Position numbers and translations under genes: made by a program
The notes under the pieces: generated by a model
What the model saw: only the letters and a program-made list of their open reading frames with translations
Told to the model about the DNA's origin: nothing
The model's database searches: none
IMG/VR virus record: IMGVR_UViG_2751185972_000005
Reading direction: 5' to 3' (one strand)
DNA length: 13,917 nt
Source: a virus
Lineage: Duplodnaviria; Heunggongvirae; Uroviricota; Caudoviricetes
Shown: positions 1-13,917 of the stretch, piece by piece
Layout: the number at the start of each line of letters is the position of its first letter
How positions within the stretch are numbered: the first letter of the stretch is position 1

Positions 1-217
1 CACCGGGATGACTGTGGACCAGTGCCACAATCTCCCCCTGCATCTCTGCCCGCAGCCAGTCTTCCGGTGCGATACGAAAATACGCCTCCGGCTCTGCAGA
101 AATATTCACACAAGGGATATACCGCTCCCCCTCCGGCGTTCTCACCACGAAGCCACACGACTCCGCTGGCGCACATCGCCGGGCGTGCGCCAGAATCGCT
201 GATTCTGTCTGTGTCAT
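1..217 (-). CDS. K: Tail assembly protein K (lambda gpK-like); 5' portion only, 3' end lies beyond window start
   Basis: Reverse-strand translation from the ATG at 215-217 gives MTQTESAILAHARRCAPAESCGFVVRTPEGERYIPCVNISAEPEAYFRIAPEDWLRAEMQGEIVALVHSHPG, near-identical to the lambda K N-terminus as recalled, including the HSHP JAMM-type motif. Start lies 5 nt downstream of the L stop (222-224). Antisense to plus-strand track ORFs 8..202 and 22..228. Confidence 0.9.
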   Translation of the reverse strand, partial: MTQTESAILAHARRCAPAESCGFVVRTPEGERYIPCVNISAEPEAYFRIAPEDWLRAEMQGEIVALVHSHPG

Positions 218-221
218 GGAT

Positions 222-921
222 TTACTGAGAAAGTTTATTGATGGAAAGGAAACCGCCGAAATTACCGGTATTGTTGCGCAACTCACACCCGCGCATACAC
301 TTGCTGCATTTGTCCTTCCGGATATCCGTCGTTGGTTTGTCGAACTCGTCAGCCACTGCCCTGCCCGTGTAACCACACTCATCAGAACGGTAGGTCCACA
401 TACAGGTATTCGCCAGCATGATACGCCCCGGGAAAACCGCGCCATCCGTCTCCGTTGGTGTGGCCAGCACAAAAGAGGCACTGACCGCGCTCAGTTCGCT
501 GCACTGCTCGATGCGCCAGCGGCTGATCACCTCCTGCTCCGGATCGGCGTCACTGTTTCCGTTGACGAAGTTCACCGCATCCAGAAAACGGGCGTAAACC
601 TTACGCCGGACCACCGTTCCGCCGACCAGACTCTGCAGATCTTCCGCCATCCCGGCGACCATACCGTACAGGTTAGAAACCGTCAGCGTGGGGCGCGTAC
701 TGGTGCCTTTGCCATTCAGTTCAAAACCACTCCCCCTGAATGGGATACGGCTGATACTGTCGCCCCTGCCAGGTGACCGGCTCACCTTTTTCGTTCTGCT
801 CATTACAGAAAAAATAACGTTCTCCACCGACCTCTGTCAGGTCGATTTCCCAGAGCACCACGCTGGCCGACTGCTCCGCACGGGTGCATTCATTCAGTGT
901 TTCCTGCCGGATATCCTGCAT
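222..921 (-). pseudogene. L: Minor tail protein L (lambda gpL-like), reading frame broken by a +1 insertion in a C5 run (top strand 732-736)
   Basis: Track ORF 721..921 (66 aa, MQDIRQETLNECTRAEQSASVVLWEIDLTEVGGERYFFCNEQNEKGEPVTWQGRQYQPYPIQG then EWF-stop) matches the gpL N-terminus. Track ORF 222..827 carries the rest from GSGFELNGKGTSTRPTLTVSNLYGMV to INKLSQ in a different frame. Minus-strand CAGGGGGAGTGG has five G where four would give IQGSGFELNG. Confidence 0.85.
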
Positions 922-1250
922 CAGTTCACCACCTGTTCAAACTCTGCGCTGAACTCAACACGCAGCATACTGACCCGCGACGACCATTTTGCGCAGGTCA
1001 CCTTTATCTGCCGCCACTCATAAGGCGGCGTCCACAGAAAGGATTTCCAGCCCCCGTGCTCAGCCAGAAACGACTCAAGCGCCGTGGCCTCCCAACGGGG
1101 AACAGAAAGCGTCACGCTGTACGTTTTCAGGTCGGCATTCAGCCCGGCAGGCGCTCGCTGGGAATAGCCATCACCAAAGCGCACTTTCCTGACGGAAGGG
1201 GCTGAAGCCACATCCATACCGGGTTTCACTTTCCAGTGGAAGGTCTTCAT
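921..1250 (-). CDS. M: Tail protein M (lambda gpM-like)
   Basis: Track ORF 921..1250, 109 aa, MKTFHWKVKPGMDVASAPSVRKVRFGDGYSQRAPAGLN...RVEFSAEFEQVVN, near-identical in sequence and length to lambda gpM as recalled. Overlaps the H stop and the L start. Confidence 0.95.
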   Translation of the reverse strand: MKTFHWKVKPGMDVASAPSVRKVRFGDGYSQRAPAGLNADLKTYSVTLSVPRWEATALESFLAEHGGWKSFLWTPPYEWRQIKVTCAKWSSRVSMLRVEFSAEFEQVVN

Positions 1251-11722: not shown

Positions 11723-11925
11723 AACCTCACTCCCAGCGGACGACGGCGACGGCGGGTTGTCCCCAGTACCGACTCCGCATCATTGATCGCCCGGTTAAGC
11801 TCATCCAGAGAAGCTGCCGTATATTCAATTCTGCGACCATCTTTCTGGACAGACACCACCCGTTTACCGGTTAATAAATCAAGGCGCGCCTGACGCAGCG
11901 CCTGCAGTTCAGCGACTGTAACCAT
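11719..11925 (-). CDS. W: Head completion / head-tail joining protein W (lambda gpW-like)
   Basis: Track ORF 11719..11925, 68 aa, MVTVAELQALRQARLDLLTGKRVVSVQKDGRRIEYTAASLDELNRAINDAESVLG..., matches lambda gpW (68 aa) including LxTGKRVxxVQKDGRR. Confidence 0.92.
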   Translation of the reverse strand: MVTVAELQALRQARLDLLTGKRVVSVQKDGRRIEYTAASLDELNRAINDAESVLGTTRRRRRPLGVRL

Positions 11926-13541
11926 TCACTCCTCCGGACAGCTTCGCTGCCAGTTCTTTAAGGGTTGGCCGGGTCGTCTCTTCTTCCCGGGATTTTGCCA
12001 GTACAGCCAGATCAAGCTGCCAGCGTTGCACGGACACACGTAATGCCGCGTAGGCATACACCAGGCAGTCCAGCGCTTCGTTACGCCGCTTTTTGTTATC
12101 CCACAGCAGACGCATCTTTCCTTTTTCCCACTTCTCCACAAGCTCTTCCGCCACCAGTTGCTGCGCCTCTGTCTGCGAAAAAATCTCCGGATCATCAGGA
12201 AAACGGATGGCATACGACGTGGCTTCATCCGCAGGCGTGGGATCGGCTTTCATACGGGCATAGAGAATTTCTTTTGCGGTGTCCGTCCCCACTTCGCACA
12301 GATACACGCCCCGCTGATTGCGGGTTTTTGGCATGGTGATCACCGGCTTGCCATAAACAGATGCACCTTTTACCGGCAGCACCCGGAAAACACCGTGTTT
12401 TTTTGACCTCTGATAGACAATTTCGCCATCGATCCCCCCGGTGTCCCAGCAGACACGGGAAATGGTCATTTCGGTTCCGTCTGCATGGCGGTATTTTTTG
12501 TTGATCGCCACATCCACACGTAACAGCGTCTCTTCCTCATCGGGACGCCCCATAATGATGATTTTATCCACCAGAAAGGCTTCCTCTCCCGGAGCCCATC
12601 CCCAGACATACATCTCAAAACGGTTTCGCTGCGAGTCAATGCCCGCCGTCAGATAAACCACCCGGGAAGGCACCGCAGCCGTGTAACGCACAACCTTATC
12701 CATCAGCACCTGGTGATCGAGTTTTTCGCCCACGGCCTCTTCCCAGGTCTCGCCCAGCGTGGTGTTCACAAAGGTTTTCAGGCCGTTGGGATCTTTCAGT
12801 GCATCCAGCCAGTCATAGACAATCTGTACCCAGGTGGTGAACGGACTGTACGCCGTCCAGATATGGAATGTGATGGAGCGCGGCGGCGGAATTTCATTAT
12901 CCGCGGCGCTGAAAAATGTCAGACCGTCACGAGTCCACATGCCCGTGTTTTCACAGATCCACCGCCCGTTACTCTGGTCAAGCTCAGACTGATGGATCAC
13001 ACAGCCATGATGCTCACAAAGGTAGAAAACACTTTCTGGCTTATTCTTCTCCCACTTAAGACCGAAAGGCGAGGCATCATCGCCAAATTTCAGATACTGC
13101 TCCTCCCCACAGTGCGGACAGGGCACATAAAAACGCATGAAATGTGCCGACTCGTTAGCGGCTTTTTCGATCTGGCAGGAGCCTTTGATTTTAGGCGTCG
13201 AGCCGCGAATGGATTTTGGCCATACAGAGCCCTCAATACGTTTATCCCCCAGCAGGGTTGGCGAACCCTCTTTTTCAACATCCGGTTCGAACGAGGAAAG
13301 CTCGTCATAACAAACCACATCCACGGATTTTTCACGGTAGTTTTTTGCTGCCGCTCCCCCCAGACACCAGAAACCCACACCGGAGGAAAAACGCTTCAGG
13401 GTGAGCGTATTATCGCGGTGTTTTCTTCCGAACCATGGAGCCAGCTCCAGCAATGCAGGAACATCCCTTATCGTTGGCTCAACATGAGATTTCATAAAAT
13501 CTTCAGCAGCTGAGTCCGTGGGCTGAAAAAGAAGGCTGTTG
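11909..13541 (-). pseudogene. A: Terminase large subunit A (lambda gpA-like), 5' end (about 100 codons, ATPase N-terminus) removed by the IS insertion
   Basis: Track ORF 11909..13495 (528 aa) matches lambda gpA from about residue 115 to the C-terminus (FMKSHVEPTIRDVPALLELAPWFGRKHRDNTLTLKRF...GSVWPKSIRGSTPKIKGSCQIEKAANES...CPHCGEEQYLKFGD...FHIWTAYSPFTTWVQIV...TLGETWEE...LTAGIDSQ...VCWDTGGIDGEIVYQRSKKHG...KGASVYGKPV...WDNKKRRNEALDCLVYAYAALR). The frame stays open and homologous upstream of the first Met (NSLLFQPTDSAAEDFM) up to 13541, where IS sequence begins. No start codon or N-terminal region is present in the window. Confidence 0.88.
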
Positions 13542-13917
13542 TGAACCGCCCCGGGAATCCTGGAGACTAAACTCCCTGAGAAAGAGGTAAACAGGATGAC
13601 TAAAAATACTCGTTTTTCCCCCGAAGTCCGTCAGAGGGCGATTCGTATGGTTCTGGAAAGTCAGGGCGAATATGACTCACAGTGGGCGGCAATTTGTTCC
13701 ATTGCCCCAAAGATTGGCTGTACACCGGAGACTCTGCGTGTCTGGGTACGCCAGCATGAGCGGGATACCGGAGGCGGTGATGGCGGGCTCACCACCGCTG
13801 AACGTCAGCGTCTGAAAGAGCTGGAACGTGAAAATCGTGAACTGCGCCGCAGTAACGATATCCTTCGCCAGGCTTCCGCTTATTTTGCGAAGGCGGAGTT
13901 CGACCGCCTCTGGAAAA
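13542..13917 (+). mobile_element. IS3-family insertion sequence, left end (IS629/IS1203-like); continues beyond window end
   Basis: Phage homology stops abruptly at 13541. From 13542 the sequence starts TGAACCGCCCCGGGAATCCTGGAGACTAAACTCC (typical IS3-family TG... terminal inverted repeat) followed by an RBS and an orfA-type transposase ORF. Only one end is in the window, so the right IR and target-site duplication cannot be seen. Confidence 0.85.
13596..13917 (+). CDS. IS3-family transposase OrfA (helix-turn-helix / leucine-zipper N-terminal protein), 3' end beyond window
   Basis: Translation from the ATG at 13596: [110 protein letters not shown] plus leucine-zipper architecture and the ...[19 protein letters not shown] motif are characteristic of IS3-group OrfA; recalled as very close to IS629/IS1203 OrfA. 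Not in the ORF track because no stop lies within the window. Confidence 0.85.

Follow-up and report, generated by a model that had tools for sequence, protein, structure and literature searches.

Does the locus record a prophage late operon that has decayed at five sites, or does part of the decay belong to a single sequence? The window (the whole stretch analyzed, 13,917 nt of IMG/VR virus record IMGVR_UViG_2751185972_000005) has an insertion sequence (IS) in A, one extra base in L, single bases missing at two sites in H, and one base missing in E. The account that we consider probable has a defective lambdoid prophage as the source of this late operon, with the IS and the L slip inherited and the E and H deletions most likely errors. 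The prophage is disabled by the IS in A and the inherited L frameshift, and the operon has no evident retained function.

Gene content and intact relatives

In the order known from lambda, 17 morphogenesis genes occupy the minus strand: A′, W, B, C/Nu3, D, E, FI, FII, Z, U, V, G, T, H, M, L, and K′ (Table 1). The identity of each gene is backed by its Pfam family and by colinearity with lambda, phage 21, and annotated intact prophages, in agreement with the preliminary description of the locus as a lambda-type late operon in collinear order whose intergenic gaps do not exceed ~57 nt; the widest gaps are those of E-D (57 nt; 8194 to 8250) and FI-E (51 nt; 7115 to 7165). The absence of morons or accessory genes and of credible long plus-strand open reading frames (ORFs), also claimed there, was confirmed: the seven longest plus-strand ORFs (144 to 444 aa) had no Pfam match, and no Rfam families or tRNAs were found in the window. 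Relatives carry flanking Nu1 and cos upstream of A and I/J and fiber genes downstream of K.

Table 1. Features of the window and the evidence for their assignment
Feature	Position	Strand	Description	Evidence
K′	1..217	-	Tail-tip gene K (C40/JAB peptidase), first 72 codons; runs past window start	Pfam Prok-JAB (E = 4e-12); colinear with K of L002
Mosaic K/L block	1..941		Matches another Shigella prophage remnant at 100% identity (H 1013 aa, IS66-flanked)
L	222..921	-	Minor tail (tail-tip) protein; +1 frameshift gives 66-aa piece (921-721) and 201-aa ORF (827-222)	Phage_tail_L matched by both pieces
L lesion	732..736		C5 on plus strand (G5 on gene strand); C4 in intact relatives
M	921..1250	-	Minor tail protein, intact, 109 aa	Phage_min_tail; 0 aa differences vs L002
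H	1247..3818	-	Tape measure protein; frame lost through two one-base deletions; repaired 857 aa	TMP_2 (Pfam) in N-terminal piece (558 aa)
H lesion 2 (3′ in gene)	1622..1626		One C missing at ~1623-1625, CGCCGCCGC to CGCGCCGC; private
H lesion 1 (5′ in gene)	2186..2188		One base missing at 2187, GG to G on plus strand; private
T frame of G-T chaperone	3799..4212	-	137-aa ORF, intact	Phage_tail_T
G	4239..4670	-	Tail assembly chaperone, intact, 143 aa	Phage_TAC_2; 0 differences vs L002
GGGAAAG slippery heptamer	4257..4263	-	5 codons before G stop; predicted programmed -1 G-T frameshift
V	4684..5436	-	Major tail tube protein, C-terminal Big_2 domain, intact, 250 aa	Pfam
U	5444..5839	-	Tail terminator, intact, 131 aa	Pfam, comparison with intact prophage
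Z	5836..6369	-	Tail completion protein, intact, 177 aa	Pfam, comparison with intact prophage
FII	6385..6738	-	Head-tail joining protein, intact, 117 aa	Pfam, comparison with intact prophage
FI	6731..7114	-	DNA packaging protein, intact, 127 aa	Pfam, comparison with intact prophage
E	7166..8193	-	Major capsid protein; one-base deletion gives 194-aa and 148-aa ORFs; repaired 342 aa	Phage_cap_E (Pfam) matched by both halves
E lesion	7671..7673		One base missing at 7672, GG to G on plus strand; private
D	8251..8598	-	shp-type head decoration protein, intact, 115 aa	Pfam, protein comparison
Nu3-type scaffold ORF	8635-9237	-	Nested in C, 200 aa, co-terminal with C
C	8635..10140	-	S49 prohead protease, intact, 501 aa	Pfam; phage 21 annotation
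B	10130..11722	-	Portal protein, intact, 530 aa	Pfam, comparison with intact prophage
W	11719..11925	-	Head-tail joining protein, intact, 68 aa	Pfam, comparison with intact prophage
A′	11909..13541	-	Terminase large subunit, 3′ 544 codons; first ~98 codons cut off by IS	GpA_ATPase (profile positions 73-247 only) and GpA_nuclease (Pfam)
IS629/IS1203-type IS3-family element, left 376 nt	13542..13917	+	IRL from 13542; runs off window
OrfA HTH_Tnp_1 domain	13596-13916	+		Pfam E = 2e-12

Lesion positions were set by alignment to three references. Once the four indels were repaired, no stop codons remained, all ORFs were full length, and the genes from M to A showed 0 to 1 amino acid differences each from those of the intact prophage of Escherichia coli GZ04-0086; repaired H was 100% identical to WP_000082389.1, and the remaining part of A′ codes for amino acids identical to those of intact A. 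The 12 complete genes other than E, H, and L are intact in the window, as had been stated, with full-length frames and products near-identical to the E. coli prophage proteins. The Nu3-type ORF would start at an ATG at 9237 preceded by GAGGAGG, the arrangement annotated in phage 21. The T frame is open downstream of the GGGAAAG heptamer, as expected of a programmed -1 site, and the heptamer lies at the position of the lambda G-T frameshift site; the case for slippage stands on this position because chance alone would account for the number of GGGAAAG copies in the window.

The GZ04-0086 prophage (NZ_CP042336.1, 400897 to 414439) was 99.3% identical to the window over 1 to 13541, with the same gene order and gene lengths and only 3 substitutions and 4 indels over 660 to 13541. 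Identical proteins include H (as repaired in the window), V, G, B, C, D, and W. Unlike the window, this prophage has all genes intact and A without an IS, and the 3′ half of its L and the 5′ end of its K represent another allele (~86 substitutions over 1 to 656). It has many close relatives in E. coli. Escherichia phages PhiR12_1, _2, _4, and _5 and PhiR12_2_star (PV340549 to PV340554) share the gene order at 94 to 96% nucleotide identity across the operon but, in contrast to the window, were deposited as phage genomes and lack the IS; H of PhiR12_2_star is annotated as two pieces, at a site differing from those in the window.

The head genes are of the phage 21 type. In phage 21 (OL657228.1), A, W, B, C, D, and E are 94 to 98.5% identical to the window at the amino acid level, the lengths of D (115 aa), C (501 aa), and E (342 aa) match, and the scaffold gene is nested in C, whereas FI is only 44% and Z, U, V, G, and H are only 68 to 82% identical. 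Lambda (NC_001416) has the same 17 genes in the same order and a G-T slippery heptamer at the equivalent place. Its M and L are ~93 to 94% identical to those of the window, but its head proteins are only 54 to 66% identical, its FI 28%, and its C is 62 aa longer.

The preliminary description had guessed at a Shigella or enterohemorrhagic E. coli (EHEC)-type background from the IS629-like element. That argument is weak because the identical IS sequence occurs on many E. coli plasmids, but the Shigella guess fits other evidence. T carries the Shigella-specific P66S allele, and its exact allele is named "MULTISPECIES [Shigella]," as is the exact allele of repaired E, with the intact E allele on 118 Shigella-labeled contigs. 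The T allele was found in 235 collection blocks, in 212 of which the longest carrying contig was 10 to 20 kb. The K/L identity described below points the same way, and the junction between A and the IS occurred in 0 of 5,426 complete E. coli genomes. We infer that the host was probably Shigella, an assignment based on database names of exact alleles and on absence from complete E. coli genomes rather than on chromosomal flanks. In this account, the head and tail genes in the window form the late operon of a prophage, lambdoid and defective, from a lineage with Shigella-labeled alleles.

Inherited lesions in A and L

Gene A is broken at 13541/13542 by the left end of the IS, whose IRL sequence is TGAACCGCCCCGGGAATCC. 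The preliminary description of this element as IS629-like was well founded. Over the 376 nt compared (29% of the element), identity to annotated IS629/IS1203v of Stx phages was 97.6 to 97.9%, above the ≥95% nucleotide identity to a reference element that ISfinder uses for isoforms; the inverted repeat starts with TG, and OrfA bears a helix-turn-helix domain. Close copies carry the PGAP name "IS3-like element IS1203 family," and in the relative TB354 the full element is present, with a DDE (rve) OrfB, a right inverted repeat, a TAC target site duplication, and an annotated programmed frameshift between orfA and orfB (-1). Prophages of E. coli O157:H7 Sakai (Sp/SpLE) harbor the same IS type, and the window IS is 97.6% identical to the IS629 of VT2-Sakai; unlike the window, the IS629-bearing prophages of O157:H7 belong to another host lineage and have another insertion site. 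IS629 resides mostly in prophages, which hold 62% of the copies in four O157 genomes (PMC3271280).

The insertion is real and inherited. The junction recurs base for base in L016 (GCA_902501695.1), L027 (SRR14333894), and L028 (SRR7221188), and since these are three independent assemblies, the IS is not an assembly chimera, a scenario that the preliminary description had allowed for. Those contigs of the lineage that were examined (L022, L023, and L025 to L028) start at or near the break. As only the left IS end lies in the window, the event may have been a simple insertion or an IS-mediated deletion or rearrangement. The IS629/IS1203-type insertion after codon ~98 of A splits the N-terminal ATPase part and the upstream Nu1 from the rest of A and therefore abolishes packaging.

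The L frameshift is also real. The K/L block around it spans 941 nt and shares 100% identity with another Shigella prophage remnant. Ten such remnant loci (L004 to L013) match window positions 1 to 941, frameshifted L included, and diverge sharply from 942. The remnant (e.g., CP026811.1 784697 to 804897 and S. flexneri CDC 796-83 AERO01000018.1) has IS66 and other IS elements in place of head genes and differs from the window in M, in an H of 1013 aa, and in a V of 246 aa. The exact 66-aa L product was found on 64 contigs bearing the names Shigella flexneri CCH060, CDC 796-83, or "Tax=Shigella." In complete E. coli genomes, by comparison, the best full-length match to window positions 1 to 1000 was only 92.6%. 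The tail-tip gene has a C4-to-C5 slip, and the block that holds it, which matches a resident-type Shigella remnant, was most likely gained by recombination between prophages. Decay of L within this operon, as first described, is not what happened, since the frameshift came with a block recombined or joined in from another prophage.

The join itself might be an assembly artefact in which two prophages of one genome, the IS-in-A prophage (beyond 942) and the source of the K/L block (1 to 941), were merged across a short common stretch, so that the L frameshift is the other prophage's. Four members of the IS-in-A lineage (L022, L023, L025, and L029) do have an intact, E. coli-type K/L block, positions 657 to 941 are near-identical in both prophage types and offer a substrate for misassembly, and sibling short-read contigs stop at 793 and at 1591 to 1644. 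L026, however, runs through 942 to 793 and has G at 841, the remnant-type allele, contiguous with the same M, which fits a natural recombinant, although this argument is one diagnostic base. A false join, which would be compatible with our main explanation, thus seems quite improbable to us, and recombination remains the favored origin of the block.

Deletions in E and H and explanations of the decay

The lesions in A and L are corroborated in other assemblies; the E and H frames are broken in the window sequence only. We compared 121-nt probes centered on each deletion with complete E. coli genomes, and the best probe match was 99.2% (one gap) in all matching records. The E deletion was absent from all 949 of these and from L014, L016, L019, L022, L023, and L026 to L029; H lesion 1 was absent from 1218 records and from L016, L026, L027, and L028; and H lesion 2 was absent from 900 records and from L026 and L027. 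Over ~11.8 to 11.9 kb, L016 and L028 match the window exactly except at 2186 and 7671, where the window lacks a base. L026 and L027, with 0 and 2 substitutions relative to the window, both also keep the base missing at 1623. All three deletions fall in 2-nt G/C runs. The two lesions that recur across assemblies are slips in which a longer homopolymer gained a base: C4 became C5 in L, and C7 became C8 in H of the L022/L025/L029 subclade. The latter is a genuine case of frameshift decay in this lineage.

Errors of base calling or assembly most likely explain these deletions, which would be very recent private mutations if real. The suggestion that the frameshifts might be sequencing errors, raised in the preliminary description as grounds for refutation, was therefore close to the mark for E and H and wrong for L (at least 64 contigs and ten loci), and the single five-lesion decay pattern proposed there does not hold, as the E and both H deletions are missing from siblings with the IS junction and from homologous E. 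coli copies.

All five lesions could instead be genuine, the three deletions in E and H having been gained after the IS lifted selection. Pseudogene accumulation is known in Shigella genomes, and H does decay naturally, with a frameshift of its own in the sibling subclade and a frameshifted H in TB354; further lesions would be neutral in a prophage already dead through A and L. What makes this rather unlikely is that the window differs from its siblings by 3 indels and 0 substitutions over ~11.8 kb. Spontaneous mutation in E. coli produces about ten base substitutions per indel, so that, under neutrality, three changes would all be indels only about once in 1000 cases. The deletions, moreover, sit in 2-nt runs rather than long homopolymers, and none occurs in any other assembly compared.

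A truly intact and inducible prophage, with a chimeric IS and an error behind every frameshift, is scarcely credible. The E and H deletions do resemble artefacts, but the A|IS junction stands in three independent assemblies, with short-read contigs of the lineage breaking there, and the L +1 frameshift recurs as described above; intact frames of the essential genes A, E, H, and L, which a functional prophage would have, were not all found. We give just as little credence to a domesticated remnant that serves the host, for example through tail-like particles or a gene transfer agent (GTA)-like structure. Twelve genes are intact and near-identical to those of functional relatives. However, the genes struck are essential (A for packaging, L for the tail tip, and possibly E for the capsid and H for the tape measure), so neither DNA-filled heads nor tails would be possible, and siblings decay at yet other sites. 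In a tailocin- or GTA-like element, selection would preserve every tail (or head) gene intact, but L is frameshifted, as is H in the window sequence, and partial domestication, as first proposed, found no supporting evidence. The near-identity to the intact prophage (3 substitutions over 12.9 kb) means that too little time has passed and is no sign of purifying selection, the divergence being too low for a selection test; it does accord with the relatively recent inactivation that had been suggested. An inherited IS and L slip, with probable errors in E and H, remains our preferred explanation.

The same IS junction is already present in public assemblies, and lambdoid prophages broken by IS elements and frameshifts are commonplace in Shigella and pathogenic E. 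coli, so the locus is of little import in itself. The use of the result is methodological: the five-lesion pattern splits into an IS, an L slip that was likely recombined in, and three deletions confined to this sequence and most simply read as errors, so that pseudogene counts from a single assembly would overstate decay here.

A small lead concerns IS target choice. Three IS629-family insertions lie within 10 bp of one another in near-identical prophages: after 13541 (IRL abutting A), 13537 (IRR), and 13532 (IRR). It is possible, if doubtful, that codons ~96 to 99 of A are a true hotspot for independent insertions of this family. If so, the cluster would point to sequence- or structure-directed targeting or to selection that has repeatedly favored hosts disabling the packaging of their prophages. 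A Mu-like end was also seen ~20 nt from the cluster, and a further IS629-type insertion was seen at ~13099.

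Inactivating lesions and their consequences

The window is a dead prophage module. In alignments of the window to phage PhiR12_2_star (PV340551.1) and to the prophages of E. coli GZ04-0086 (intact) and E. coli TB354, four one-base indels were the only frame-disrupting differences, and terminase gene A is cut by an insertion sequence (IS) (see table). In silico repair of the four indels reopened all frames, none of which then contained a stop codon. Repaired H was 857 amino acids (aa) long and 100% identical to an intact protein, and in the repaired window, E differed by K43R and T by P66S. 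Alignment and repair thus confirmed in full the lesions (IS in A; disrupted frames in E, L, and twice in H) listed in the preliminary description, which was made from the sequence alone. Programmed recoding was rejected as an explanation for the E, H, and L shifts, since these frames are uninterrupted in sibling assemblies and all relatives.

Truncation of A, which is cut off from Nu1 and from its own N terminus, would abolish DNA packaging, and with L frameshifted, the tail tip would be unable to form. The capsid and tape measure would also be lost were the deletions in E and H genuine. Only three substitutions separate window positions 660 to 13541 from the intact E. coli prophage, so inactivation was recent, as had been proposed, and selection has not had time to show. 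The accompanying suggestion of partial domestication found no support. Public assemblies already contain the element, the IS junction, and the L allele, and such disruption of prophages is commonplace; there is nothing of substance that is new.

Lesions of the window, insertions in gene A of related loci, and genes upstream of Nu1
Feature	Window position	Position in other locus	Detail	Basis or occurrence
L lesion	732-736		+1 base (+ strand, C4 to C5)	alignment
H lesion	~1623		-1 base	alignment
H lesion	2187		-1 base	alignment
E lesion	7672		-1 base	alignment
A lesion	13541/13542		after codon ~98; cut by left end of IS3-family element	
IS629-type insertion	after 13541		IRL abuts A	window, L016, L027, L028
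IS629-type insertion	after 13537	L015 ~239	IRR abuts A	
IS629-type insertion	after 13532	L026 ~29	IRR abuts A	
Fourth IS629-type insertion	~13099	L003 17100-18410	TSD TAC	TB354
Mu-like prophage end	~20 nt beyond 13541	L014 ~9935		
"beta"/"sce7726" gene pair	outside window	L002 17770-19399; L003 20082-21711	between Nu1 and lysis genes	

Origins of the IS in A and the frameshift in L

The IS insertion is real and ancestral to a lineage, and is no chimera. Three independent assemblies, namely, GCA_902501695.1 (L016) and two that Logan built from public read sets (L027 and L028), contain exactly the same junction (...GAAGGCTGTTG|TGAACCGCCCC...), and the contigs of the lineage break at this point: those examined that carry the P66S allele of T start on or close to the IS boundary in A. 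The allele was present in 235 collection blocks, with the longest carrying contig at 10 to 20 kb in 212 of them. OrfA of the element carries an HTH_Tnp_1 domain, and the 376 nt of IS in the window share 97.6 to 97.9% identity with Stx phage elements that bear IS629 or IS1203v annotations, which bears out its initial designation as IS629-like. A simple insertion with a 3-bp duplication would predict IRR followed by TTG and CGTGATTTATGC... and, beyond these, codons 1 to 98 of A and then Nu1; any other arrangement would point to an IS-mediated deletion or inversion.

Three sites in A, all within 10 bp, have each received an IS629-type element independently, in both orientations. A hotspot in the 5′ part of A is suggestive only, since part of this set (loci L014 and L015) was retrieved by a query that selects lesions in that part of the gene. 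Most hits of a look-up with the A remnant (528 aa) were unrelated A lesions (Mu insertion and frameshifts) that were likewise query selected and are uninformative on hotspots.

The L lesion is also real but arose elsewhere, reaching the operon as part of a block of 941 nt. Contigs with an exact match to the truncated 66-aa L product numbered 64, under the names Shigella flexneri CCH060, CDC 796-83, or "Tax=Shigella." Ten loci with this product are 100% identical to window positions 1 to 941, including the extra base, and diverge abruptly within M; they represent a different, heavily IS-ridden prophage remnant with an H of 1,013 aa, and this look-up retrieved that other prophage and no siblings of the window's. 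Four other members of the IS-in-A lineage (L022, L023, L025, and L029) have an E. coli-type K/L block with L intact, which, together with the identical block in the other prophage, marks the lesion as foreign to the operon. The most simple origin would be recombination between two resident lambdoid prophages. Alternatively, M and the K/L block may have been joined by the assembly, which we consider improbable: sibling contig L026 crosses position 942 with the remnant-type base at 841 and supports a putative natural recombinant, although this counter-evidence consists of a single diagnostic base.

Deletions in E and H

Assemblies L016 and L028, which share the IS junction, are identical to the window over ~11.8 to 11.9 kb save for the bases missing from it at 2187 and 7672. 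Siblings L026 and L027 show zero and two substitutions, respectively, and both also have the base missing at 1623. Among 5,426 complete E. coli genomes, 121-nt probes on the deletions at 7672, 2187, and 1623 matched 949, 1,218, and 900 records, respectively, always with a best identity of 99.2%, equivalent to one gap, and the intact E allele of the lineage occurs in 118 Shigella-labelled contigs. The window thus departs from its closest siblings by three indels and no substitution, each of the indels lying in a 2-nt G/C run. Frameshifts common to several assemblies are of the classic slippage kind, in longer homopolymers: C4 became C5 in L, and C7 became C8 in H of the sibling subclade L022/L025/L029.

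Base substitutions outnumber indels about tenfold in E. coli mutation spectra, so a set of three changes made up entirely of indels is unlikely to be natural. Given this bias, the sequence context, and the comparison with siblings, the E and H deletions are probably sequence errors; very recent private mutations are the alternative. Neither frameshifted product (E, 194 aa; H, 558 aa) was found by exact look-up in the protein collection, which is weak evidence because PGAP annotation omits pseudogene products (H, for example, is absent from the L022 gene table). The preliminary description had envisaged that sequencing errors and a chimeric IS might conceal an intact inducible prophage. Error probably does account for three of the five lesions, as we read these deletions, but an intact prophage is excluded by the corroborated IS and L lesions.

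Other irregularities were observed in this region. H carries a C7-to-C8 slip (window ~1573 to 1579) in the L022/L025/L029 subclade, whose gene tables lack H; the frameshift is real, is common to these assemblies, and occupies a site distinct from the H lesions of the window. Sibling short-read contigs end at window positions 793 (L026), 1591 (L027), 1639 (L028), and ~1644 (L016), adjoining the K/L mosaic block and within ~20 to 30 nt of the 1623 deletion, which suggests repeat boundaries common to other prophages of those genomes and a region prone to assembly or polishing problems. In PhiR12_2_star, H is annotated as two overlapping coding sequences (PV340551.1; locus L001, 2752 to 5324), and one base found in the window and the E. 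coli references at window ~1462 is lacking, reflecting either a frameshifted H in the phage record or a sequencing error.

Host, gene content, and module type

Exact matches to the T allele and the repaired E allele are named "MULTISPECIES [Shigella]," the best full-length match of the K/L block is 92.6% in complete E. coli genomes versus 100% in Shigella loci, and the A|IS junction had no match among the 5,426 complete E. coli genomes. These results support the earlier guess of a Shigella host. The argument from IS629 as a Shigella or EHEC marker did not hold, since identical IS copies are widespread on E. coli plasmids; IS629 is known to sit mostly in prophages (PMC3271280). Searches for the window gave no matches, with exact E-deletion and A|IS junction patterns in species-representative and viral collections and with a gapped junction pattern in viral and metagenome collections.

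All long coherent open reading frames (ORFs) are on the minus strand. Pfam assigned, from 5′ to 3′, A (C-terminal 544 codons only), W, portal B, S49 protease C, decoration protein D, major capsid E (two pieces), FI, FII, Z, U, tail tube V, chaperones G and T, tape measure H (in pieces), M, L (two pieces), and the first 72 codons of K. Annotations of lambda, phage 21, the PhiR12 phages, and E. coli prophages give an identical order. Lambda hallmarks include the G-T slippery heptamer GGGAAAG five codons upstream of the G stop and a Nu3-type scaffold ORF nested in C (ATG at 9237, preceded by the ribosome-binding site GAGGAGG). The widest intergenic gaps, E-D and FI-E, measure 57 and 51 nt, respectively, and no Rfam families, tRNAs, or notable repeats were found within the window as hidden cargo, in agreement with the initial view of seventeen genes in canonical order with no cargo. 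The head module is of the phage 21 type (94 to 98.5% amino acid identity to phage 21 versus 54 to 66% to lambda), whereas tail genes Z to H represent a third allele set, 68 to 82% identical to both phages.

The seven longest plus-strand ORFs (144 to 444 aa) had no Pfam match and were rejected as genuine genes, all being antisense to confirmed genes. Antisense ORFs are usual for this GC-rich operon; the longest of them, an ATG ORF of 444 aa (window 4009 to 5343) opposite T, G, and V, makes no credible gene. AT skew is strongly negative (-0.25 to -0.33) across mid-H (window 2001 to 3000), where the coding strand of the Lys/Glu/Ala-rich tape-measure region is A rich, and marks no separate feature. 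In the intact E. coli relatives, a convergent gene pair is annotated as encoding a "beta family protein" (355 aa) and an "sce7726 family protein" (206 aa) directly upstream of Nu1, and a lipoprotein-like ORF of 112 aa separates I from J; all are candidates for moron or defence cargo, beyond the reach of the window.
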